This document shows, piece after piece, positions 286-49,724 of a stretch of 64,000 nt of DNA. Within the stretch, counting starts at the first letter, position 1. Each line of letters starts with the position of its first letter. This stretch comes from Patescibacteria group bacterium (GTDB lineage: Bacteria > Patescibacteriota > Patescibacteriia > UBA1558 > GWA2-36-10). The position numbers and the translations under genes were made by a program. The stretch lies in assembly GCA_041650755.1 (NCBI GenBank), contig JBAZKN010000002.1, forward strand, positions 69,030-133,029, written 5' to 3'. The notes below the pieces were generated by a model. That model was not told the origin of the DNA. It saw only the letters and a program-made list of their open reading frames with translations, and ran no database searches.

Positions 286-964
286 GGTAAAATCAACTTC
301 TACACTAGCGTAGAAGTTTAAAATTTATATAAACTTGCCTGCACTGTTAAACAGGCTGCTTAGCGGCATTTAATGGTGTGGATAACTTGTTGATAATTGT
401 GAACTTTTCTTAAAAAAATTGTCAACTATTGTGGAAAAACATAAAAATTTTGGCTAATATTAGCGTTAATATATAGTTGACGCCTTTTTGATTATATGAT
501 ATAATTAAGATGTTGATAAATAAGATCTTTAAAATAATAAGGAATTGCGCATAAGTATATATTTGTGCCCAGTTCCTTCCGCTATTCTATCCTTCAATTC
601 AGCCAATGCCCTGACCATTGGCACCAAAAAAAACAAAAATAGAAATATAAATAGGTTCACCCTTCTATTGGGACTAAAATCCCGGAGAGGTCGATACCGT
701 AGGACGGTGTAGCGGCTAAATAGACCTTGAGTCAGATAGGTCACATGATGTCTTTACAAAATAATATCCCAGCCAATTTAAACTTACAAAAAGTATCTGA
801 GCAACATATGCTCGGAAATGGGTATTTCTAAAGACACCAAGGGCGCATTACAGCCCACAAAATTTTTTGAAAATGTTTGGGGTGTATGGATGCGCCTTTT
901 GCAATTGATCGAAATCTTGATTTTTTGCGGCTGATTTGCTATCCTATGTGGGTATAAAAACTAT

Positions 965-15234: not shown

Positions 15235-15464
15235 TTGGCTTCACAAAAAGTGATAGTTTATCTATAATTAGTTTAATAGATTTTTGTTCGTTGTTGGTGG
15301 GTACACCCTTTTTCGTTGCACTATGGAGGGTAGGTAGCTTTGGTCAAAGATGGACAGGCAGTTGGTTCCTCGCCTTTAGTGGAATCGCCCTCTGGGCGAA
15401 GAGCATCACTCTTACTCACCTGCCTAAGCCGAACCACCGAAATTTAATTTTATATTTTTGTATG

Positions 15465-15541
15465 GGTATATAGCTCAGTTGGTTAGAGCACGACTCTTAT
15501 AAAGTCGGGGTCCCTGGTTCAAGTCCAGGTATACCCACCAT
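15465..15541 (+). tRNA. tRNA-Ile, anticodon UAU, with encoded CCA
   Basis: Manual cloverleaf fold: acceptor GGGTATA/TATACCC, D-arm GCTC-AGTTGGTTA-GAGC, anticodon stem CGACT/AGTCG, loop CTTATAA, T-arm CCTGG-TTCAAGT-CCAGG, discriminator A. Confidence 0.75.
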
Positions 15542-27630: not shown

Positions 27631-27718
27631 GCCGAAGTGGCGAAACTTGGTAGACGCGCATGGTTCAGGGCCATGTGATCGCAAGGTCGTGAGGGTTCAA
27701 ATCCCTCCTTCGGCACCA
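27631..27718 (+). tRNA. tRNA-Leu, anticodon CAG, with long variable arm and encoded CCA
   Basis: Acceptor GCCGAAG/CTTCGGC, anticodon loop TTCAGGG, long variable arm, T-arm GAGGGTTCAAATCCCTC. Confidence 0.85.
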
Positions 27719-34754: not shown

Positions 34755-34934
34755 TTTATTGATTATTTTTTTGAGAAATATACTAATATAACCTAAATTA
34801 ATAGTAAACTATCTGAGTAAAGCATTAGTTATCATAACAAAATAGATGCCTCTGGTCAAGGTATTTAAGTGTTGAAAACAGATTGATTTTTAAGTTCCAA
34901 GATGTTAAAATTAGTTTATATTTTTGAAAATTTT

Positions 34935-37796
34935 ATGGTGAAAATAGGCAAATACAATCACGAGAAAATTGAGGCGGTTTGGCAAAAGAGATGGCAAGAT
35001 AGCCGAGCTTTTGTCGTTCCAGATTCTGGCAAGGATAAATTTTATGGCTTAGTGGAGTTTCCTTATCCCTCCGGCGAGGGTTTGCATACTGGGCATTTGC
35101 GTTCTTATACAGCCCTGGATGTGATTTGCCGCTATCAACGTTTGCAAGGTAAGAATGTTTTGTACCCCATGGGCATGGACGCTTTTGGTTTGCCAGCCGA
35201 AAACTATGCAGTCAAAAAAAATATTCCGCCCCAGGAGACCACTAAGAAGAATATAGCTAATTATATTCGCCAGCTGACTAGCACCGGCTGCAGTTTTGAT
35301 TGGTCCAGATTTTTGGCGACCACTGATCCGGATTATTATCATTGGACACAATGGATTTTTATTCAGCTTTGGGAAAATGGGTTGGCTTATAAGGCTAAAA
35401 AAAATATAAATTGGTGCCCGGCTTGCCAGATTGGTCTGGCTAACGAAGAGGTGATTAACGGCCACTGTGAGCGTTGCGGTAGCCAGGTCACTAAAAAAGA
35501 AAAAGAGCAGTGGCTTTTGAAGATTACCAAATACGCTGATCGTCTGATAGAGGGTTTGGATGGGGTTGATTTTTTGGAGCAAATAAAATTACAGCAAAAA
35601 AATTGGATTGGCAGATCAGAGGGTGCAGAAATTGATTTTGTTATATCAGACAGCCAGGAAAAATTAAAAGTTTTTACTACCAGGCCAGATACTTTGTTTG
35701 GTGTGACTTTTATGGTGGTAGCGCCGGAGCACCCTGTTATTTATAAGCTGGAAGATAAAATAAAAAACTTGGGTGAAGTCAAAAAATATATTGTGGCCAG
35801 CCGCAAAAAAAGTGATTTGGAAAGAGCTGACTTGGCTCGTGAAAAAACCGGTATAGAGCTAAAGGGCTGGCGGGCCATAAATCCTATTAATCAGGAAAAA
35901 ATTCCTATTTTTGTGGCTGATTATGTGACTATGGGTTATGGCACGGGGGCCATCATGGCTGTGCCGGCTCATGACCAGCGAGATTGGGAATTTGCCAAGA
36001 AGTATAAATTACCTATCAGGGAAGTGATCGTGCCATTGCGCATAGATAAGAAAAACCCGCCAGTCAAGGGTAAGCGGAGTGTAATTCGCCGCACAGTGCA
36101 TGCCTTGGTATTTAATCCTAAAAACGGCCAAGTTTTGTGCCTGAAATGGAAGCAGCATCCTTGGACGGGTTTCATAGTTGGCGGCGTAGATGATGAAGAA
36201 GATATAGTCGCAGCGGCTCGCCGTGAAGTTTATGAAGAGACTGGCTACAAAGATTTGAAATTTGTCAAAAGCCTGGATGGCCAGGTAAGGGGGGAATATT
36301 TTGCCGCCCATAAGGATGAGAATAGAATAGCCTATACTACGGCTGTAGTTTTTGAGCTAAGCAAAGATAAGCCAGACGATATTTCTCCGGTTGAGCAAGC
36401 CAAGCATGAGCCTATTTGGCTTGACCTAAAAAATATTACTCCAGAAAATTTTACTTGCGCTGAACTTGATTTATGGATGGAGCGCCTGCAACAAACCAAA
36501 AACAGTGTTTATAGCGGTGATGGCGTTTTGATTAATTCTGGAAAATATGATGGCTTGGATACCAAAGCAGGAGCAGATGCAATCAGCCGAGACATCAAGG
36601 CCAAGCAGACTGTCAATTATCGCCTGCATGATTGGATTTTTTCGCGGCAAAGATATTGGGGTGAACCCATACCCATGGTTTTTTGTGAAAAATGCGATTG
36701 GCAGCCGATAGCCGAGAAAGATTTGCCGGTGGTTTTGCCGGATATAAAAGATTTTAAGCCCGGTCCCGATGGCCAGTCGCCTTTATCAAAAGTAGGGGCC
36801 TGGGTAAATACTACCTGTCCCAAGTGCGGTGGTCCAGCCAAGCGCGAGACTGACACCATGCCCAACTGGGCAGGCTCAAATTGGTATTTTATCCGCTATA
36901 CTGATCCTAAAAATAAAAAACAATTATCTGACCCTAAAAAAATAAAATATTGGCTGCCGGTTGATTGGTATAATGGCGGCATGGAACACAATACTTTGCA
37001 TTTATTGTATTCCCGTTTTATTTTCAAATTTTTATATGATATCGGCGTCATCCCCAAAGAGGTCGGCGATGAACCATATAGAAAACGCACTGCCCAAGGA
37101 ATGATTTTGGGCGAGGGCAATGTCAAAATGTCCAAATCCCGCGGTAATGTGGTCAACCCCGATGATTATGTGAAAAAATACGGGGCTGATACCCTGCGGC
37201 TCTATATAATGTTTATGGGCCCGTTTGATCAGGCTATTGCCTGGGATGATAAAGGAGTTTTGGGCGTGCATCGTTTTGTCAATAAAATTTGGAATTTACA
37301 AGCCAAAGTGGTTAAAAATCATGAGTCTGCCCCTGAAGTTTTACAGTTATTTAACCAAAGTATAAAAAAAATCGGTGACGATATTTTGAGCATGCACTTC
37401 AATACAGCTGTTTCCCAGTTGATGATATTGGCCAACTTTTTGGATAAACAGTCGGCTATTGATCAAGGGCTTTGGGCCAAGTTGTTAGTGTTGATGTCGC
37501 CCTTTGCTCCTCATCTGGCCGAAGAATTGTGGTCGTTTTTGGGCAATAAAGAAGGTCTGAGTTTTGCCCATTGGCCAGAGTACGATAAAAATTTAGTGAA
37601 GAAACAAATGGTCACAGTAGCTATTCAGATAAATGGTAAGCTGCGCGATACCATTGAACTACCTTTAGATACAGCTGATAGCCAGGCATTGCAGCAGCAG
37701 ATTTTACAGCGTGAGAAAGTCCTCAAAGCTATACTAAATAGACCAGTCAAAAAATTTATCTACGTAAAGAATAAAATTATAAGCATTGTGGTTTAG
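34935..37796 (+). CDS. leuS: Leucyl-tRNA synthetase carrying an inserted Nudix hydrolase domain
   Basis: PYPSGEGLHTGH (HIGH-type) motif, CP1 editing TTRPDT, VKMSKS (KMSKS-type) motif and C-terminal anticodon-binding domain. A ~160-aa insert after the editing domain has a perfect Nudix box, GGVDDEEDIVAAARREVYEETGY. The start may alternatively be ATG 34902. Confidence 0.9.
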   Translation: MVKIGKYNHEKIEAVWQKRWQDSRAFVVPDSGKDKFYGLVEFPYPSGEGLHTGHLRSYTALDVICRYQRLQGKNVLYPMGMDAFGLPAENYAVKKNIPPQETTKKNIANYIRQLTSTGCSFDWSRFLATTDPDYYHWTQWIFIQLWENGLAYKAKKNINWCPACQIGLANEEVINGHCERCGSQVTKKEKEQWLLKITKYADRLIEGLDGVDFLEQIKLQQKNWIGRSEGAEIDFVISDSQEKLKVFTTRPDTLFGVTFMVVAPEHPVIYKLEDKIKNLGEVKKYIVASRKKSDLERADLAREKTGIELKGWRAINPINQEKIPIFVADYVTMGYGTGAIMAVPAHDQRDWEFAKKYKLPIREVIVPLRIDKKNPPVKGKRSVIRRTVHALVFNPKNGQVLCLKWKQHPWTGFIVGGVDDEEDIVAAARREVYEETGYKDLKFVKSLDGQVRGEYFAAHKDENRIAYTTAVVFELSKDKPDDISPVEQAKHEPIWLDLKNITPENFTCAELDLWMERLQQTKNSVYSGDGVLINSGKYDGLDTKAGADAISRDIKAKQTVNYRLHDWIFSRQRYWGEPIPMVFCEKCDWQPIAEKDLPVVLPDIKDFKPGPDGQSPLSKVGAWVNTTCPKCGGPAKRETDTMPNWAGSNWYFIRYTDPKNKKQLSDPKKIKYWLPVDWYNGGMEHNTLHLLYSRFIFKFLYDIGVIPKEVGDEPYRKRTAQGMILGEGNVKMSKSRGNVVNPDDYVKKYGADTLRLYIMFMGPFDQAIAWDDKGVLGVHRFVNKIWNLQAKVVKNHESAPEVLQLFNQSIKKIGDDILSMHFNTAVSQLMILANFLDKQSAIDQGLWAKLLVLMSPFAPHLAEELWSFLGNKEGLSFAHWPEYDKNLVKKQMVTVAIQINGKLRDTIELPLDTADSQALQQQILQREKVLKAILNRPVKKFIYVKNKIISIVV

Positions 37797-41420: not shown

Positions 41421-44400
41421 ATGAGAGCTTATCAAAAAATATTATTAGGCGTCTTAGTGGCGGTGGTCGCTGCTACTATGATTTTTAGCATCCCAAAACC
41501 TCAGTCAGCTCAAGCTTTGGGTCCATCTTTGCCAAACTTTGTCGAGATAGCTACTTGGGTTTGGACACGTGCTAAATACGCATATCATAAAGTGGAAAGC
41601 GCTTTGACTAGCCAGCTCTTGGTACGCACTGTTGAAACTTATGTTAATAATCTGGCCTATAATATGGCGACCAGTATTGCCACTAATGGTGCAGGCGGTA
41701 AGCCATTATTTGAGACCAAAAGTGTAAAAAATGCCCTAAAACAGGCCCAAGAGGCAGCCGCCGGAGAGTTTATCGGCCAATTGAGCGCTAGCAGCTTTAG
41801 CCAATTGGGCTTTAACCTTTGCGAACCATCTTTGAACGTCAGATTATCTATTACCTTAGGCTTAATAGATTCTACTGCACCGCCAACGCCAAAGTGTAAT
41901 TGGCAAGATGTAAAATCCAAATGGGAGAGATTCGGTAATTTGACTATTTCTGATATGGTCAAATTTCAACTGGATACTGCTCCTAGTAAATATACTAGTC
42001 TTACTCCACTGGAGGGCAGCAGCAGCCGCATAAATGTATGGCAGAATTATGATGATTTTTTCAAGAGTTTTTCCTTGGAACAAAGTGATTGGGGTGTTTT
42101 TGGTAAATTGAATGAGGCTTATGAAAAAGCTCAACAAGATGCTGTGGCTGCCAAAGACACCTATCTTAAAATCTGCAATGGCTATCTAAATAATGAGACT
42201 ACTGTTAGTGAAGATGTCAAAACCACCTGTAAAGCAATAGTGGATTCACAAGGCGCGGCTTTGGCAACTTTGGCAGTGTCTGATATAGAAAAGATAAAAT
42301 TACCATCTCAGGTCAGCTCGCCCAACCCGAATTTGAGTCAGGTCATGAAGAATGCCGGCAAGTATTTTATCAGTACTCTAGCTTCCAAGTCACAGCCTAT
42401 TTTCTTGAAGCTGGTAAATAAATGGCTAAAAGAAGGCATGGCCTCTTTTGTGTCTTTATTTAAAAGTAATCAATCTTTGCGCGATGATCTTTTGGCTCAA
42501 TTGCGGGGAGGGGCAGATCTCTATCAGCCGCGCGGTGTAGATTTTTATTCTGAATTTAAAAAGATAGAATTTGACACCGTGGAGTCCTATGGTTTACTGG
42601 ATGATTTTGCCGTTTGTCCAGAAGATACGCAGTATCGTAAACCGGACAATTGTGTCATCTCGGCTGATTTTTTACAGGCTGTCAACAGCAAAGTCACCGT
42701 GCAGGAAGCGATCGATAGTGGCTATATCAATGGCGGCTTGCCTTTGGTAGGGCGCGACGATGCTTTGCGTGATAGTAATAGCCAGTGTTATCGGGATGGC
42801 TTGTGTTATAGTAATTTAGTCAAATTACGCAAAGCTAATATTATACCGGTAGGTTGGGAAATGGCCGCTCTCAAGAGCCCCAGTACCAAGCCAGCGACTT
42901 TGCAGCAGGCCATTGATTGTTTTGAAGATGACGCTAGTAAATGTAGCGTGCCGGCTACTGGCCATAATCCATATTATCATTTGATTGACCCTAATTGGAT
43001 TTTGAAAGCGCCAGCTGCTATTTGCAGCGCCTATGTCTACGCCCCAGTTTTGGAAGCACCAGATTCAAGCAATCGGCAGCAATATTGTGCCGACACCAAA
43101 GTATGTTTGCGCGAAGATGATAAAGGTAATTGTCTAGATGGCCAATATGGCTATTGTACCAAGAGTGAAAACATTTGGCGTTTTCAGGGTGATATTTGCC
43201 AAGATGGAGATATCTATAGCGGTTGTTTGACTTTTTCTGGCGCCAGCCGGCCGATACAATCATATTTAGAACAATCCTTAAGTTATTGTACGGCCGATCA
43301 GGTAGGCTGCCAGCGCTATTCCCAAGAGAAGAATGATGATGGCGAGTGGGTATTCCAAAGTATCGGTGCTGATGACAATGATTTATTTTTAAATAAACAG
43401 GCTCAAACTTGTTCAGCAGCTGAAAATGGTTGTTCGGAATTTATTATAATGGCGGCAGACAGTGGAGCAAATTTATTTGCCAACGGTGATTTTGAGATGG
43501 ATAGCGACAGCGACTTGTTGCCAGATGGATATGCAGTTTTTGACGTTGCTTCTGTGCCATTATTTGCGCCATATTTAGTATCTGGTCAAGGGGTGGATAA
43601 TTCCAACGCCGCGTTATCTAGAATCGGAGCGGGTAATGCTTGCCGCCGCATAGATGTTTTCCCCAATACTTTATATAATTTTTCCGCCTCCTTTAAGCAA
43701 TCAAGCATAGTTTCTCAAGCAGAAATATTATTACAATCTTGCACTAGCGCGAATAGTCAGCCTGGTAATATCAGCTCACCCGATGGGTCTTTTACAGTAT
43801 TTAATGATGGGGGCAGTACTTTCCCACCAAATAAAGGTTATGTCAGGTTGGAATCCACTGAGTATAATAATACTGGTTATACCCGTGTTGCCGGTACTAT
43901 CAATTCCGGTGATTCAGTTTCTTGTTGGGTATGCGCCGGCGGCGTAAATGAATATCAGTATGTGGATAATTTAAAAGTAGAAATAGTCAGTCAGCCGAAA
44001 GCAGAAGCGAATTATTCTGCTTATGGTGCCGGTGCCAAGATAGTTTTAAATGGCTCTCGCAGCATGTGCACTGCCCAAGAAGTTGGTTGTCAAGGATATA
44101 CTCCTAGTAATGGTGATCCAATGATTCCGGCTGTCATCAATCAGACAGATCTATGTCCGTCACAATGCGTCGGCTATGCTAGTTTTGCTCAGCAGACAGA
44201 TATTTTTGATGCCGTCGATCCTTTGAGCAGCAATGAAGTAGAATATTATAATTTTATTCCTAAAGATAAAAACACCAAGACTTGCCCAGCCCAAGCAGTT
44301 GGCTGCGAGGAGTTCACTAATCTTGATGAAGTAGCTAAGGGAGGAGAGGGCAAAGAATATTATACTTATCTCCGTCAATGCGTGGCGGAAGATCTGGGGC

Positions 44401-47400
44401 ATACTTATTATACTTGGGAGGGTTCTGATGTAGCCGGCTATCAGATTAAGACTTGGCTGGCTTTGTCTAGCAATAGCGGTGGCCCCTGTACCAATGTCGC
44501 CCCAGCTGGTGATGTCTGTCTGGATGACTCTAGCCCGAGTACAGCAGCAGCGATTTGTACAGCTACTGAAGCGGCTACTGACCCAAATTGTCGGCAGTTC
44601 TTTGATTCGGACGGGACATCCTATTATCGTTATCAAAATAGAATAATTTTTGCTAGCGGCGATTGTCACGATTATCGCCGCACGGCCACAGGCAGCACCT
44701 TTAGAGCCATTCCTTCATTGAGCACGCAGTGTGAGGCCCAGTACAAGGATTGTCGCTCTTATTATGGCAATACAGCCAATAATGTTTACCAGATTCTTAG
44801 CGATAACTTTGAACAGAATGTCTACTCACCTTGGCAAGCATATCTAGCCACGATTGACTTGTCTCCAGAGTCTTTGGAAAATAATGGCCATTCTTTGAAG
44901 ATAGTCAAGAGCGGTAATTGGGCAGACATATATCGCCCCTTAGGCATAGCTCCGGAAAATAATAAACAATATCAGGTCTCTTGGTGGATGAAAAATGATG
45001 CGCCGCTAAATTATGTCAGGGTGCGCCTAGTGCCATCATATAATGGCGGCGGTTATGTCAGATTTAGAGTCAAGGACTCATCTGTTATTACTGATGGATT
45101 TTTGGTGAATATTTTAAATGATAGTACTTTAAGCAATGTCAGTGCGGCTACTTGGCATCGGTTTGAAGCCAGCAATACGCTTGATTTCAATGATATCGTC
45201 TTAGATGCTGGCCGTACCCTAGCTGATATTAATTGGAATAATACGCTTTTGGTCATTGATGCTTCTAACTCTACTAGTAACGATCAATTATTTTTTGATA
45301 ATATAATTTTTAAAGAAGTCAATAGCAGCATTTCTGTTATTAAGAATTCTTGGCAAACACCAATAGCTTGCGACACTCCTTATACTGGTTATTACTTGGG
45401 TTGTCAGACCTACACCGATACCAATAATAATCAATACAATTTACACTCCTTTTCTAGCCTGTGTCGCGTAGAAGCTATTGGTTGTATGCCGGCTATTGAT
45501 ACACATAATTCCAGTAATCCATTTGCCGAGACTTTCAATGCTGGCGATAACTCTGAAATCACAGTACCGGCTGATAATACAACTTATTTGGTGCCGGATA
45601 ATACTAAATATTGCGCTAGCCAATATAAAGGTTGTATGGCCTTGGGTGTGCCAGACCTTACGCAGCCCAGCTATTTGACAACGGTATATAAGATAAATAA
45701 TCCTGATTATTATGGTACGACTTTGTGCCCCAGCACGGCCTTGGGTTGTGATGAATATATTTCCAGTAAGGGCACATATTATTTCCGTGATCCAGGCACA
45801 GAAACTTGTACCTACAAGAAAAATATATCAGTCGATGGCAGTATCGTGTCCGGCTGGTTTAAGACCAGCACCATAAATACCAACTCGCCGATAGCCTGCA
45901 ATGATTACAATAATGACGGATCAATAAATTTGAGCGATTCAGTATTGTATATGCAAGGGGAGCGTCAGGGCGCCCAGGTCTGTTCAATTGATAAAAATTT
46001 ATGCACGGCCTTCGTTGACCCATCGGATCCGCAGAGTTGCACTTTTGGTTATTGTGCCAATCTTTCTGGCACGCCAGAGTCTGGGTATGCCAGCCAGTAT
46101 GCCTGTGAATCCAATCCATCAATGAGATGGGTGCCGGGCACTTGCCAGACTTATTACTATTATAATAATGATAACATTGATAAGGATTCTTGTGCCGGCG
46201 AGGTAGATAAAAATAGTGGCTGCGCTTTGTTTTATGAGGCAAATGATTGGAACGCCGATCACAGTGCCGTCAATGTGACTTATGACTCTACTAAGACTTA
46301 TGATAGCAATGTGTCTACTGGTAAGCCGGTTAGTCCGGTAATTTGCAATAGTAGCCAGGATCCAACCTGCGAATTAGATGCTAATATTCTTCTGAAGGTA
46401 AAGAAAGATCGCCAGTGCGGGGAATGGCTGGCTTGTCGCTCTTCATCAGTGGTTTGGGATAGTGATAATAATAAATATAAAGTAGTTTGCGCTGACTTGA
46501 GTTTATGCAATGAGTTTGATCCGGATAATAATATCACTAAATGCGGCAATTGGGTTGATCCGGGGAACTTGCCGCTGACTGAGGACCTATATCAGAGCCG
46601 CACTACGGGAGCCAATAATCATTTGCAATGGGGCGACATGGACTATACTGGTTTTTCAATACCAGATTTCATGCCGGTTGCTGCTCTGACAGTGGTCAAT
46701 TTTGGCACAGCGGCTAGTCCAAATCCTCGCTTGGTTTACGCTGTCAGCAGCCCGACTTGTCTGCCAAATGGCCGCTCTTGTGATGTGGTTTTGGATGGCA
46801 CGACGTATACCGGCGTTTGTCAGGATCGCCAATGCACCATCAACCCAGATTTATCAAATAATAATTTATTGGTTGATACCCGCGGCTTCACTAGCGCCGA
46901 TGCTCCTTTTCCCATCAGTATTGCTCCTGACCAAAATCAGCTCGATAGGCTGGCAGCTTATGCGGGAGCCAACATGTGCCAATCGATCAATAGTTCTGGC
47001 GTTTCGACGCCAAACGGCTGTGAACTTTCTTATGTAAAATTAACTTATGGCAGTAGCGGTGAAGTGCGCTATTATCCAAAGAATTCACCCACGCCGAATG
47101 GTATCTGCACTTCTGGCGATTTAGATAGCAAGATCGATTGTGTAGATAGCAGTGGTGCGGTCAGAAATAATTTGTGCGACACCTATAATGATGATGGTAC
47201 TTCTCGGGCTGATGGTATGTGCTCCAAAAAAACAAAAGCTGAGACAGTCTATAATTGGCCGGGCATTTGTTTGGAAAAAGATTATAACGCTAAGTTAGTC
47301 AATGATACTGGCGGCAATTTTTATTGCAATCAATGGTATCCAGCCGAACAAATCAACGGCATGAATAGTCTGTATGACAATTATCGTGAGGCCGGGTATT

Positions 47401-49724
47401 ATAATCCGACCGGCCAAGATGCTCTATTTTGTTCAGTGGCCGAGCCCTTCCAATTGCAAACCGAAAGGATATATTGCGGTCGTCGTGGTGGGTCCGATCC
47501 AAATCACTGTAATCTACTTTTGCGCGTGCCGGCAGGCTCAAAAGTTTTAGTAAGTAATATGGCCGGCAATAATAATTTAATAAATTACGGCTATTTGCGT
47601 TCCAGTGCTTTCAATTTTGTAGAAGGCAACATGACCACTGGTCCTTATTATATGTTTGACCGCATAGAGAAAGTCGGTATAGATGTTGGTGTCTCTTACG
47701 AAGAGGCCAAGTTTTCCGTGGATGATTTCGTCATCGCCCCGGGCACCGATAAGGCCAACGTACCAGTGGTTGATAGAGCTGTGTTAGCTAAATTTTTTGA
47801 CACTGGCACAAACAAGATAGAGCTGTATTTTTATGATGAAGATATAAATAGAAACGGCGACGGTAACCCTGACGCTAGAATCTTGGTGCGCGATATTACT
47901 GCGCCAGCTTCACCCTTTGATTGTCAGGGAGTGATGAGCGATAGTGAGCCGAATGACGTCAGCAGTGTTTGTAATTGTGGTGTTGATATTCCGGGCCTGA
48001 CCGACAGAGGCTGTCACGAGGTCTGGCGTGGCCTATATAATCCTTTACCGTATAATTATTACGTTAAAGCAGAAACGCCGCCATTAGAGATAGTTACTGA
48101 GACCGATTGCAGCGATGCTGCTAGCGGTTATGCTTCCCCTCCGGGCAAGGGTATTGCTTGTTTAAATTCTCGCTCAACAACCTTTGCTAATTATTGGACG
48201 CAAATTACAAATGGCACGATTGCCAGCGAAGATGATTGTCGTGGTAACGCTAATTGTGAATTCGCTTGGTGTTTGTCGGGGCAAGTTACAGATAATGACA
48301 GCGCGACTGCGGGGTATCAATTGTATTGTTCAGAATTCGGCGGCATGTCCATTAGTGGTCGGGTATTTAACAGTATCTTTTTATCTAGTTCGTCTGGTAT
48401 TACCAGCTGTATGGACAGATTATTTTCAGTTGGCGCTTTGACGCAATATGGCTATTCAGTGAATGTTATAACATCAGTTGATCAGGGTCTACTAAGAGCT
48501 TTGTTCAATGATTCTAGTGCCACTTTTGAAATGACAGACATTTATGATTCTGATGACGGCTGCATAGAGTCTAATACTTCAGCCGCTACCAGCACCACTC
48601 CCAATGTGTATTTTGTCGATCGGCCATGTGGAATTGCTAGTAGTATTCAAAGCTGCATTACCTTTGGCCAATATTATACCGCTGAAATGTCAGGCAGCCC
48701 TTGTACTGGATTAGCTTGTTATCAGCAGTGTCGTTTGGTAGCTCAGTTGGATCCGGAAGGCGACAAATCTTGGGTGAGGACAGATATTTGGTGGCGCAAT
48801 GAAAACAATAGCCGCAATAATTATCCGGGAAATAATACTTGGTTATCGTACTATTATAAATCCAGCTTTTTGCAGAATAGCAACGTGAATTATAAGACTA
48901 TTACCGGCGAAACCGTGTCCTTTACTCATTTTGGGGCGGCTTTGGGTTATGTTGGCAAGGACGTAGTTAATGTTCGGGCGCCATTTAATGCCACGGCTTT
49001 TTCGCCATTGTCTACGGCTACATTCTTCTATCATTGGCCGGGCGGTCCCGCCAATTTATCCCTTACCCAAGCCTGGGGTACGGCCAGCGGGCAGTTAGAT
49101 TATTTATTCGTCAGGTCTTTTAATTTGCAGTGGAACAACACCAGCCAGACCTATGAGATTTTTGGCAGCCCAGTGGATATTTATGAAGGTAGTGATTTTA
49201 CCAACAAATATAATATTAAAGCTGGTCCAGATTATAATCCGGCGATTTTACAAGTTTGCGGTAACAATACTTGTGATAATGCCAGCGGTGTGACGGTCGA
49301 TGATCGTGGTTCTGGTGAAGTCAAAGCCAAAGAATCTCTGATGGTAGCCTTGAAGTTTTATTATTATGCTCATCCTGATCATATGCCGGTATCCAATATT
49401 ACGGTAAATTGGGGTGATGGTTCCAGTACGGTTTCTGCTCCGGGTAAGTACAAAAACAACATTCCTGATTGTAATCAAGACATACCAATGCCGGGCAAGG
49501 CAGCGGATACTTTGCAGGGCTTTGGCGGCACTGATAGAGCTTGCCGCGAAGGCTACAAGACTTTCTATCATGATTATCAGTTATCTTCCCCAGTCCATAA
49601 TGCCACTTGTAGTGCTACCGCGGCCGTTGGATCCGTCTGTTTTCAGCCGACCGTGACCGTTACTGACCATTGGGGAAATTCGACGACAGCCAACTTTGGC
49701 GGTCAAGTAGTGATAGAGCCTTAA
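41421..49724 (+). CDS. Giant (2767 aa) secreted Cys-rich surface protein with jelly-roll carbohydrate-binding-like domains
   Basis: Uninterrupted 8.3-kb ORF with a signal peptide (cleavage after AQA). About 100 Cys in recurring (V/L)GC(Q/E/M/D)x(Y/F) modules. Two CBM4/9-like regions (ANGDFE...DNLKVEIV; NFEQN...LFFDNIIF). Confidence 0.7.
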   Translation: MRAYQKILLGVLVAVVAATMIFSIPKPQSAQALGPSLPNFVEIATWVWTRAKYAYHKVESALTSQLLVRTVETYVNNLAYNMATSIATNGAGGKPLFETKSVKNALKQAQEAAAGEFIGQLSASSFSQLGFNLCEPSLNVRLSITLGLIDSTAPPTPKCNWQDVKSKWERFGNLTISDMVKFQLDTAPSKYTSLTPLEGSSSRINVWQNYDDFFKSFSLEQSDWGVFGKLNEAYEKAQQDAVAAKDTYLKICNGYLNNETTVSEDVKTTCKAIVDSQGAALATLAVSDIEKIKLPSQVSSPNPNLSQVMKNAGKYFISTLASKSQPIFLKLVNKWLKEGMASFVSLFKSNQSLRDDLLAQLRGGADLYQPRGVDFYSEFKKIEFDTVESYGLLDDFAVCPEDTQYRKPDNCVISADFLQAVNSKVTVQEAIDSGYINGGLPLVGRDDALRDSNSQCYRDGLCYSNLVKLRKANIIPVGWEMAALKSPSTKPATLQQAIDCFEDDASKCSVPATGHNPYYHLIDPNWILKAPAAICSAYVYAPVLEAPDSSNRQQYCADTKVCLREDDKGNCLDGQYGYCTKSENIWRFQGDICQDGDIYSGCLTFSGASRPIQSYLEQSLSYCTADQVGCQRYSQEKNDDGEWVFQSIGADDNDLFLNKQAQTCSAAENGCSEFIIMAADSGANLFANGDFEMDSDSDLLPDGYAVFDVASVPLFAPYLVSGQGVDNSNAALSRIGAGNACRRIDVFPNTLYNFSASFKQSSIVSQAEILLQSCTSANSQPGNISSPDGSFTVFNDGGSTFPPNKGYVRLESTEYNNTGYTRVAGTINSGDSVSCWVCAGGVNEYQYVDNLKVEIVSQPKAEANYSAYGAGAKIVLNGSRSMCTAQEVGCQGYTPSNGDPMIPAVINQTDLCPSQCVGYASFAQQTDIFDAVDPLSSNEVEYYNFIPKDKNTKTCPAQAVGCEEFTNLDEVAKGGEGKEYYTYLRQCVAEDLGHTYYTWEGSDVAGYQIKTWLALSSNSGGPCTNVAPAGDVCLDDSSPSTAAAICTATEAATDPNCRQFFDSDGTSYYRYQNRIIFASGDCHDYRRTATGSTFRAIPSLSTQCEAQYKDCRSYYGNTANNVYQILSDNFEQNVYSPWQAYLATIDLSPESLENNGHSLKIVKSGNWADIYRPLGIAPENNKQYQVSWWMKNDAPLNYVRVRLVPSYNGGGYVRFRVKDSSVITDGFLVNILNDSTLSNVSAATWHRFEASNTLDFNDIVLDAGRTLADINWNNTLLVIDASNSTSNDQLFFDNIIFKEVNSSISVIKNSWQTPIACDTPYTGYYLGCQTYTDTNNNQYNLHSFSSLCRVEAIGCMPAIDTHNSSNPFAETFNAGDNSEITVPADNTTYLVPDNTKYCASQYKGCMALGVPDLTQPSYLTTVYKINNPDYYGTTLCPSTALGCDEYISSKGTYYFRDPGTETCTYKKNISVDGSIVSGWFKTSTINTNSPIACNDYNNDGSINLSDSVLYMQGERQGAQVCSIDKNLCTAFVDPSDPQSCTFGYCANLSGTPESGYASQYACESNPSMRWVPGTCQTYYYYNNDNIDKDSCAGEVDKNSGCALFYEANDWNADHSAVNVTYDSTKTYDSNVSTGKPVSPVICNSSQDPTCELDANILLKVKKDRQCGEWLACRSSSVVWDSDNNKYKVVCADLSLCNEFDPDNNITKCGNWVDPGNLPLTEDLYQSRTTGANNHLQWGDMDYTGFSIPDFMPVAALTVVNFGTAASPNPRLVYAVSSPTCLPNGRSCDVVLDGTTYTGVCQDRQCTINPDLSNNNLLVDTRGFTSADAPFPISIAPDQNQLDRLAAYAGANMCQSINSSGVSTPNGCELSYVKLTYGSSGEVRYYPKNSPTPNGICTSGDLDSKIDCVDSSGAVRNNLCDTYNDDGTSRADGMCSKKTKAETVYNWPGICLEKDYNAKLVNDTGGNFYCNQWYPAEQINGMNSLYDNYREAGYYNPTGQDALFCSVAEPFQLQTERIYCGRRGGSDPNHCNLLLRVPAGSKVLVSNMAGNNNLINYGYLRSSAFNFVEGNMTTGPYYMFDRIEKVGIDVGVSYEEAKFSVDDFVIAPGTDKANVPVVDRAVLAKFFDTGTNKIELYFYDEDINRNGDGNPDARILVRDITAPASPFDCQGVMSDSEPNDVSSVCNCGVDIPGLTDRGCHEVWRGLYNPLPYNYYVKAETPPLEIVTETDCSDAASGYASPPGKGIACLNSRSTTFANYWTQITNGTIASEDDCRGNANCEFAWCLSGQVTDNDSATAGYQLYCSEFGGMSISGRVFNSIFLSSSSGITSCMDRLFSVGALTQYGYSVNVITSVDQGLLRALFNDSSATFEMTDIYDSDDGCIESNTSAATSTTPNVYFVDRPCGIASSIQSCITFGQYYTAEMSGSPCTGLACYQQCRLVAQLDPEGDKSWVRTDIWWRNENNSRNNYPGNNTWLSYYYKSSFLQNSNVNYKTITGETVSFTHFGAALGYVGKDVVNVRAPFNATAFSPLSTATFFYHWPGGPANLSLTQAWGTASGQLDYLFVRSFNLQWNNTSQTYEIFGSPVDIYEGSDFTNKYNIKAGPDYNPAILQVCGNNTCDNASGVTVDDRGSGEVKAKESLMVALKFYYYAHPDHMPVSNITVNWGDGSSTVSAPGKYKNNIPDCNQDIPMPGKAADTLQGFGGTDRACREGYKTFYHDYQLSSPVHNATCSATAAVGSVCFQPTVTVTDHWGNSTTANFGGQVVIEP

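Follow-up and report, generated by a model that had tools for sequence, protein, structure and literature searches.

What is a complete Nudix hydrolase domain doing inside a leucyl-tRNA synthetase (LeuRS)? The question is raised by a 64,000-nucleotide stretch of DNA from a Patescibacteria group bacterium (contig JBAZKN010000002.1, positions 69,030 to 133,029; hereafter the window, whose own numbering is used below). In this window the leuS gene encodes a bacterial-type LeuRS with some 160 additional residues, in which an earlier note, made from the sequence alone, had recognized a Nudix module. Here, we establish that the module is genuine, delimit it, trace it through related genomes, and weigh what it might hydrolyse.

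The host protein matches the bacterial LeuRS model TIGR00396 (leuS_bact) with 963.3 bits against a cut-off of 548.4, in a match that the insert breaks into three stretches, and the editing domain model PF13603 with 215 bits. Across 90 homologs, the HIGH and KMSKS residues H62, G64, H65, M743, S744 and K745 are invariant, as are the editing residues T260, R261, D263, T264, G347, G349, H357, D358, R360 and D361; this invariance of synthetic and editing motifs holds in both insert-bearing and insert-less LeuRSs. AlphaFold2 (AF2) models the full-length protein with a mean predicted local distance difference test score (pLDDT) of 91.2 and a predicted TM-score of 0.83 (pLDDT 93–97 over the insert), and Foldseek matches the LeuRS body to structures 2bte, 5omw, 4aq7 and 7nu4 (E 1e-80, TMt 0.75–0.83). 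Judged by its sequence, the LeuRS part is fully equipped, with synthetic and editing sites intact.

The protein is encoded by one uninterrupted open reading frame (ORF), 964 aa long when counted from the first ATG. All of the LeuRS motifs quoted in the earlier note lie at their expected positions in this frame, as that note had stated. The copy deposited at NCBI (P0001) is 100% identical and 953 aa long, starting at the second in-frame ATG (position 34935). Residues 1–12 of the 964-aa form are disordered in the AF2 model. The leuS start is likely at 34935 (953 aa) rather than at 34902.

The identity of the insert as a Nudix domain is supported by profile, motif and fold. Firstly, the Pfam NUDIX profile PF00293—the search that the earlier note had proposed—gives a significant match of 51.6 bits to the whole protein (aa 396–512, E 1.3e-13) and 55.2 bits to the insert alone, against a cut-off of 21.1. 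Secondly, the insert contains the Nudix box G427-x5-E433-x7-R441 E442 V x E445 E446 x G448 Y449. This box had been called a perfect instance of GX5EX7REUXEEXGU; all positions agree except the last U, which is a Tyr and not Ile, Leu or Val. Thirdly, the insert modelled alone by AF2 reaches a pLDDT of 93.4, and Foldseek recognizes a canonical Nudix fold in the model, with E. coli RppH (including the Ap4A-bound structure 7sp3) ranked first. The structure prediction is that of a confident Nudix fold inside an intact LeuRS. The insert is net acidic (mean −5) and carries a basic N-terminal arm. No second Nudix gene lies within the 64-kb window.

In an alignment with 89 homologs, residues 380–540 of the window protein occupy exactly the site of a loop in insert-less LeuRSs, delimiting a clean insertion of ~161 aa. 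The earlier note had quoted ~11 residues at this site for the E. coli enzyme; in the closest insert-less relatives (P0005, P0007, P0009 and others, core 72–77% identical) the loop has 15–17 residues (e.g., EGGDLEKEAYPALNG). The span first given for the insert, 36044–36517, is right in location but one base out of frame at its ends, the codon-exact limits being 36039–36521. The position of the insert relative to the editing domain needs correcting: it had been placed after the end of that domain, but PF13603 resumes behind it. Profile positions 1–146 of 185 match before the insert (up to aa 382), and the rest match after it. Since the profile is split by the insert, the module lies inside CP1 and not behind it. 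The module is predicted to fold independently, seated in a loop at the surface of CP1, towards the C-terminal end of that domain.

That an artefact merged a separate Nudix gene into leuS is practically excluded: the reading frame is unbroken with both CP1 halves in register, the composition is uniform (GC 0.44–0.46 across the insert, close to the flanks), an identical protein exists at NCBI, and independent assemblies show the same architecture, in 78 of 80 genome loci and in 52 loci from metagenomes. An assembly join, a frameshift and merged genes were each ruled out on these grounds; in particular, neither a frameshift nor an assembly join, which the earlier note had named as one of the findings that would undo its claim, was found at the insert. 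A search for repeats flanking the insert, as possible marks of a mobile insertion, returned only short matches at chance level.

The distribution of the insert was surveyed in one genome per GTDB species, with a tight alignment of the insert (A3) as seed; 80 loci were kept. The insert is encoded in at least 182 GTDB species representatives, with positives among the Uhr-, Moran-, Kaiser-, Taylor-, Wildermuth-, Yanofsky- and Kerfeldbacteria and the Paceibacterota. In all but two of the 80 loci, a strict Nudix box lies inside a long ORF with LeuRS motifs; the exceptions are L013, which has no strict box, and L021, where the scan recorded another box of generic type. The metagenome scan that yielded the 52 LeuRS-embedded copies was seeded with standalone homologs. 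PF00293 is found in ~80 of the 120 best LeuRS relatives. An exhaustive HMMER search with the insert retrieved 351 representatives at E ≤ 1e-3, and 110 of the best 150 contain LeuRS segments; that only 351 are reached at this threshold indicates a distinct Nudix subfamily. (A word-indexed protein search with the insert alone gave no match, which reflects the sensitivity limit of that search and not absence, HMMER having given 351.) The survey of relatives that had been suggested thus reveals the same insertion on a large scale.

Conservation was examined in 69 insert-bearing LeuRSs. Box residues G427, G428, R441, E442, E445, E446 and G448 show no variation, while E433 is conserved in 99%; across hundreds of Patescibacteria the catalytic residues are retained. 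Outside the box, R396, K471 and W506 are invariant, while N474, R475 and E498 are 96–99% conserved. On average, the insert is 50% and the core 59% identical to the window protein. With so little variation in the box and at these six other positions, the Nudix domain is probably catalytically competent.

How has such a module been gained and lost? The insert-less ortholog P0009 lies in the same gene neighbourhood as the window leuS, with the shared order M23/LysM peptidase (on the opposite strand), leuS, Sua5/YrdC, MFS and KsgA. Given this synteny, the module constitutes a clean, in-frame presence/absence difference between orthologs. In a neighbour-joining tree built from the core only, the insert is ancestral and at least 12 presence/absence changes are needed. 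Insert and core do not always tell the same story: P0006 and its relatives are 68% identical to the window protein in the core and only 37% in the insert, while P0021 is 59% identical over the whole protein and 65% in the insert. This incongruence points to two insert subtypes, lateral module swapping, or both. We infer that the module is dispensable for leucylation itself. LeuRS core positions that co-vary with the presence of the insert were also sought; phylogeny dominates the signal, except in the helix just after the insert, and for this reason we make no claim of an interface.

The same Nudix family occurs in settings other than the window architecture. A gap of 2 nt separates the end of a standalone member, P0267 (161 aa), from a following leuS that has no interruption in its editing domain (L093:492-3217 and L092:3451-5303, two NCBI metagenome-assembled genomes), and the pair is a split-gene counterpart of the fused architecture. 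Another, P0271, begins 13 nt after argS and just upstream of an IleRS-like class Ia synthetase (L082:4279-11317; also L081, L083 and L084). This synthetase has 1167 aa, a PF19302/DUF5915 C-terminus and a His_Phos_1 domain (PF00300) nested at aa 506–669. The gene order in L082 is argS, family Nudix, small ORF, IleRS-like synthetase and a second Nudix gene, with genes for thymidylate kinase/dNK, dUTPase, PNPOx and ITPase around the block. A third standalone member, P0163, lies 4 nt after Fpg/MutM. A general adjacency of standalone homologs to leuS was considered and rejected: it is seen only in the P0267 lineage, plus L150 with a generic Nudix, and the other contexts differ. In a further locus (L110:3009-4860), a standalone family Nudix of 161 aa sits between a GNAT acetyltransferase and a DUF2000 gene (PF09391) whose start overlaps the Nudix stop codon.

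The family also occurs in free proteins of 275–289 aa (L111:3731-4555, L119:3740-4570, L125:960-1784 and L136:1993-2859) that join the C-terminal CP1 half to a canonical Nudix and the CP1 return strand, colinear with LeuRS ~305–553. They have no T-rich region or GTG loop and keep the Asp of HDxRD; given that the T-rich catalytic region is missing, the free CP1 fragment is not an editing enzyme. Those of L111 and L119 are flanked by CYTH and CYTH+HAD genes. Five ProRSs (P0199 and P0283–P0286) also contain a nested member of this family, flanked by the HGTP anticodon-binding domain and ProRS-C_1. The nearest named insert-less relatives of these proteins are ProRSs of Nano- and Woesearchaeota (DPANN). 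Their Nudix box is canonical in P0286, shows R→K in P0285, and is partly degenerate in P0199, P0283 and P0284.

Several LeuRSs of the candidate phyla radiation (CPR) carry two or three family Nudix copies (P0039, P0052, P0057, P0058, P0072, P0074, P0121–P0125, P0127 and P0128), the extra one or two being placed upstream of TTRPDT, at the N-terminal edge of CP1. Of these upstream copies, the second is typically degenerate in its box (GQT...AIAEIxEETG), and proteins of this degenerate type also occur standalone (P0181, P0223, P0246 and P0249). Other enzymatic modules are found in Nudix-bearing LeuRSs too: (i) a Ham1/ITPase domain between KMSKS and the anticodon domain of P0185 (aa 984–1167, 197 bits), (ii) a HAD_2 domain nested in P0126 (aa 654–808), and (iii) a Ser_hydrolase/alpha-beta hydrolase either behind the Nudix (P0188 and P0027) or before the T-rich region (P0061 and P0067). 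The family is thus tied to aminoacyl-tRNA synthetase (aaRS) genes in several independent ways. As a separate observation, a generic, non-family Nudix ORF of 165–230 aa lies on the same strand as a Nudix-bearing leuS in L121, L124, L140–L142, L146, L147 and L150, in most cases 0.8–1.4 kb downstream of it and in L150 35 nt upstream.

Which substrates might the module act on? Membership of the RppH, MutT, NudB, NudE, ADP-ribose pyrophosphatase and NADH pyrophosphatase groups was rejected, as no curated model passes its cut-off. The RppH/NudH models (NCBIfam NF001934–NF001938) reach at best 25.6 bits against a cut-off of 116. Partial matches to RppH and to YtkD/BsRppH, over the box region, recur in 31 of 32 family members. 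The MutT models (TIGR00586 and NF008044) match weakly in 8–10 of the 32, with a best E of 1e-5 that stays short of the cut-off, and give no match to the window insert at E ≤ 0.01. An ADP-ribose-type Pro at +14 to +17 after the box is present in 0 of 80 sequences, and the NADH-type signature SQPWPFPxS is absent from the sequence that follows the box, KDLKFVKSLDGQVRGEYFAAHK. Characterized hydrolases of dinucleoside polyphosphates (ApnA) are among the neighbours in sequence and structure (1f3y, 3i7u, Ndx1 and Rv2985) and rank no better than enzymes of other specificities. According to the X-loop rule of Dunn et al. 1999, as cited in review PMC5389931, a Tyr ~16–18 residues past the Nudix box marks ApnA hydrolases. 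In the window protein Tyr466 stands 17 residues after the box, with K471, N474 and R475 close by. Of 80 sequences, 70 have a Tyr 16–18 positions beyond the box and all have an aromatic residue there, a pattern that is a correlate of ApnA hydrolysis and not proof of it.

From these observations we favour, at a probability of roughly 40%, a bifunctional LeuRS that hosts a house-cleaning pyrophosphohydrolase for small purine nucleotides, most likely ApnA. The module would cleave dinucleoside polyphosphates (Ap4A/ApnA), and possibly damaged purine nucleoside triphosphates (NTPs), in the manner of RppH/NudH and mycobacterial MutT1. E442, E445 and E446 of the REx2EE helix would bind Mg2+, E498 would serve as a further ligand or as a base, and the X-loop residue Tyr466 would stack on the base of the substrate. 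LeuRS would provide an essential, constitutively made scaffold, and possibly a local source of substrate, in gene-poor organisms. Ap4A and other ApnA arise as side products when aminoacyl-adenylate reacts with ATP.

The specificity proposed here is suggested by (i) the recurrent weak RppH matches and the ApnA hydrolases among the fold neighbours, (ii) the Tyr at +16 to +18, the missing ADP-ribose and NADH signatures and the acidic module, and (iii) the tie of the family to enzymes that make Ap4A as a side product. House-cleaning of free nucleotides is suggested by the Ham1/ITPase, HAD and Ser-hydrolase modules of other CPR LeuRSs, and by the standalone homologs found beside Fpg, dUTPase, ITPase, thymidylate kinase and CYTH/HAD genes. 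Several points weigh against this proposal. None of the curated Nudix subfamily models reaches its cut-off. To our knowledge, LeuRS does not rank with the strongest producers of Ap4A, and ArgRS forms none at all. Standalone homologs lie in varied contexts (next to MarR, another Nudix or Fpg), and adjacency of a family member to leuS is confined to the P0267 lineage. Finally, a pure passenger role leaves unexplained both the nesting in CP1 and the pairing with half of CP1 in the free proteins.

An alternative, possible though unlikely, is that the module acts in cis on RNA, as an RppH-like pyrophosphohydrolase, decapping or repair enzyme to which LeuRS/CP1 presents the tRNA acceptor end. It might remove a 5'-(p)pp, an Np4 cap or a NAD cap, or else a pyrophosphate that a toxin has added to the CCA end, and it would represent a new form of tRNA-end quality control. 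The most consistent of the weak sequence and Foldseek matches are indeed to RNA pyrophosphohydrolases (RppH, and YtkD/BsRppH in the 31 of 32 members), and CP1, where the module is located, is the domain that binds the 3' end of the tRNA. The additional copies at the other CP1 boundary, the free proteins in which Nudix is still fused to the C-terminal half of CP1, the basic N-terminal arm and the phosphoesterase/hydrolase domain (His_Phos_1) of the IleRS-like synthetase are likewise consistent with action on RNA. However, the insert is net acidic overall, and this predicted charge is unlike that of an RNA-backbone binder. In ProRS the copies are remote from any editing site, with the anticodon-binding domain on one side and the C-terminal domain on the other; free nucleotides are suggested by the co-hosted Ham1/HAD modules and by neighbours such as dUTPase, ITPase and Fpg; and the module has been lost at least ~12 times without visible compensation. 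In addition, the 5' ends of mature tRNAs are monophosphates.

We consider it equally doubtful that the module is a generic MutT-type sanitizer of 8-oxo-(d)GTP or other damaged or non-canonical NTPs, mechanistically unconnected to leucylation and nested in LeuRS only because a tiny genome offers a permissive loop in an essential, constantly expressed gene. This would sit well with P0163 lying next to Fpg/MutM, the MutT label that JGI gives to homologs, the Ham1/ITPase nested in another LeuRS, the dUTPase and ITPase genes around P0271, the repeated clean loss of the module, and the MutT1-like structures among its fold neighbours. Yet MutT models are matched weakly, in those 8–10 of 32 members and well below their cut-off; the X-loop Tyr pattern fits ApnA hydrolases; and the association with aaRSs—in LeuRS at two or more sites, in ProRS, and by adjacency to leuS, argS and ileS—is hard to ascribe to chance.

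A broader and rather improbable idea is that the aaRSs of CPR and DPANN serve as quality-control platforms. The CP1 Nudix would work in cis on whatever LeuRS holds, in one of two ways. It would strip pyrophosphate or cap modifications from the tRNA-Leu acceptor end (a 5' ppp, an Np4 or NAD cap, or a 3' pyrophosphate added by a toxin), or it would break down non-cognate aminoacyl-adenylates once these are released. In both cases this would amount to a novel synthetase activity in proofreading or repair, with the Ser-hydrolase, HAD, Ham1 and His-phosphatase domains performing further steps of the same system.

Aminoacyl-adenylate was, besides Ap4A, one of the substrates put forward in the earlier note. 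Hydrolysis of non-cognate Nva-, Ile- or Met-AMP, or of adenylate-mimic antibiotics, would amount to pre-transfer proofreading or self-protection; the module does lie within the editing domain, and the family is linked to LeuRS, ProRS and IleRS-like synthetases, all of which need proofreading. We nevertheless judge this very unlikely: an aminoacyl-AMP is a mixed acyl-phosphate anhydride and not a nucleoside diphosphate-X compound, we know of no Nudix enzyme that hydrolyses one, the co-hosted Ham1/HAD modules and gene neighbourhoods point elsewhere, and there are standalone homologs far from aaRS genes. Ap4A and aminoacyl-adenylate are both hypothetical as substrates, and Ap4A-type substrates fit the indirect evidence better than aminoacyl-adenylate. 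A non-catalytic module—structural, nucleotide-sensing, regulatory or decaying—has slimmer prospects still: degenerate boxes do occur in the extra site-1 copies of multi-Nudix LeuRSs and in some standalone and ProRS copies, and non-enzymatic Nudix domains are known (PMC5389931), but the copy at the window site keeps every catalytic residue in nearly all of ~150 sequences, and conservation of the insert is close to that of the LeuRS core.

If the Nudix domain is active, a major bacterial branch (Patescibacteria/CPR) would have a LeuRS that is also a nucleotide pyrophosphohydrolase, with a parallel in DPANN ProRS, and tRNA charging would be physically linked to the removal or recycling of by-products such as Ap4A and damaged purine NTPs. 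CPR organisms are not known to make nucleotides de novo. The interest of the case stems chiefly from its breadth, the parallel in ProRS, and this testable link between tRNA charging and nucleotide clean-up. The architecture is doubly nested, evolutionarily stable and yet repeatedly removable, and its natural pairs with and without the module lend themselves to testing the tolerance of CP1 for large insertions. The module itself represents a new, uncharacterized Nudix subfamily with a testable candidate substrate class.

No description of a LeuRS–Nudix, or any aaRS–Nudix, architecture was found in the literature searched, which largely excludes subscription journals, so that an earlier account is possible. 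The terms "synthetase" and "tRNA" are nowhere mentioned in the Nudix-clan review PMC5389931. A 2026 survey reports that PF13603 never hosts another domain (0 of 213 events; PMC13114784); the nested Nudix clearly contradicts this reported rule, by which the LeuRS editing domain would act only as an insert and never as a host. The suggestion that the architecture is undescribed is upheld as far as the papers searched go, but the sequences themselves are abundant in public databases, under automatic names. Many Nudix-bearing LeuRSs are labelled "class I tRNA ligase family protein" at NCBI (P0001, P0011, P0021, P0030, P0031, P0045 and P0088), while the insert-less relatives named there are called "leucine--tRNA ligase", as are the insert-bearing P0012 and P0019. 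The insert may thus degrade automatic annotation, and given such generic names automated reconstructions could miss or under-annotate LeuRS.

The layout of the gene and its domains is collected in Table 1.

Table 1. Features of the window leuS gene and its product; positions are those of the window, and residues are counted from the first ATG.
Feature	Residues (aa)	Window positions	Strand	Basis
leuS, bacterial-type LeuRS with nested Nudix domain		34902..37796	+	Continuous ORF, TIGR00396, AF2, Foldseek
Catalytic Rossmann fold, N-terminal half; includes Cys-rich ZN1 module		34902..35597	+	PF00133 aa 27-235
HIGH-type motif HTGH	62-65	35085-35096	+	Motif position
CP1 editing domain, first part; includes GTG loop	233-379	35598..36038	+	PF13603 aa 233-382
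T-rich motif TTRPDT	259-264	35676-35693	+	Motif position
AVPAHDQRDWEFA, beginning AVPAHDQRD (aa 353-361)	353-365	35958-35996	+	Motif position
LPIREVIVPL, directly before the insert	370-379			Motif position
Nested Nudix module: basic N-terminal arm, Nudix fold, C-terminal helix	380-540	36039..36521	+	
Nudix box GGVDDEEDIVAAARREVYEETGY, metal-binding catalytic motif	427-449	36180..36248	+	Motif match and conservation
X-loop/family signature EYFAAHKDENR	465-475	36294..36326	+	Homolog conservation; X-loop concept PMC5389931
CP1, last part: GVLINSGKYDGL (aa 541-552) and helix, back to catalytic core	541-575	36522..36626	+	Alignment, split PF13603 profile
Catalytic core, second half: DWIFSRQRYWG, Cys-rich zinc module, KMSKS		36627..37337	+	Domain match, motifs, conservation
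KMSKS	742-746	37125-37139	+	Motif position
Anticodon-binding helical domain and C-terminal tRNA-binding domain		37338..37793	+	PF08264 aa 813-925, AF2 secondary structure

Elsewhere in the window, ARAGORN reports a tRNA-Ile with the anticodon TAT (UAU) at 15464–15540. Five other tRNA genes lie upstream of leuS, including tRNA-Leu(CAG) at 27631–27718. A tRNA-Ile(UAU) is uncommon in bacteria, where AUA is usually read by a modified CAU tRNA. On the downstream side of the leuS block, positions 41421–49724 are taken up by a giant ORF (2767 aa); a 2840-aa counterpart lies at the same position in the syntenic locus L085.

How does the window protein compare with known systems? It shares with the E. 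coli and T. thermophilus LeuRSs all catalytic, CP1, zinc, anticodon-binding and C-terminal elements, and is 32–36% identical to solved structures. It differs in that a 161-aa enzymatic domain is nested in CP1 where those enzymes have a short loop. The Nudix module itself resembles RppH/NudH and the ApnA hydrolases (Aquifex 3i7u and T. thermophilus Ndx1) in its fold, its box and the aromatic residue, usually Tyr, ~17 residues past the box, and these enzymes give the best partial hidden Markov model and Foldseek matches. In contrast to them, the window module has its own signature (HK-x-ENR, R396, E498 and W506), begins with a basic arm and ends with a helix, carries a net negative charge, and resides within a synthetase.

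Mycobacterial MutT1 (Rv2985/MSMEG MutT1) combines a Nudix with a histidine-phosphatase domain and is active on 8-oxo-(d)GTP and ApnA. It is a structural neighbour of the module, and its Nudix/His-phosphatase pairing recurs at the level of the locus around P0271. MutT1, however, is a free two-domain enzyme formed by terminal fusion, whereas here the domains are nested in, or adjoin, aaRS genes. PDB entry 2azw, an uncharacterized MutT/Nudix protein of Enterococcus faecalis, stands alone, is 13% identical, and is not among the best 60 of 129 matches in a profile search of PDB sequences. On the synthetase side, the free-standing editing-domain proteins AlaX, YbaK and ProX show that pieces of editing domains can exist as separate genes, comparable to the free proteins that join half of CP1 to a Nudix. 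A precedent for the architecture is found in aaRSs with an extra enzymatic domain, such as the IleRS–GNAT proteins of NCBIfam NF040702, in which a class Ia synthetase likewise hosts an added catalytic domain; the window protein is distinguished from these by the type of that domain (Nudix) and by its position, nested in CP1.

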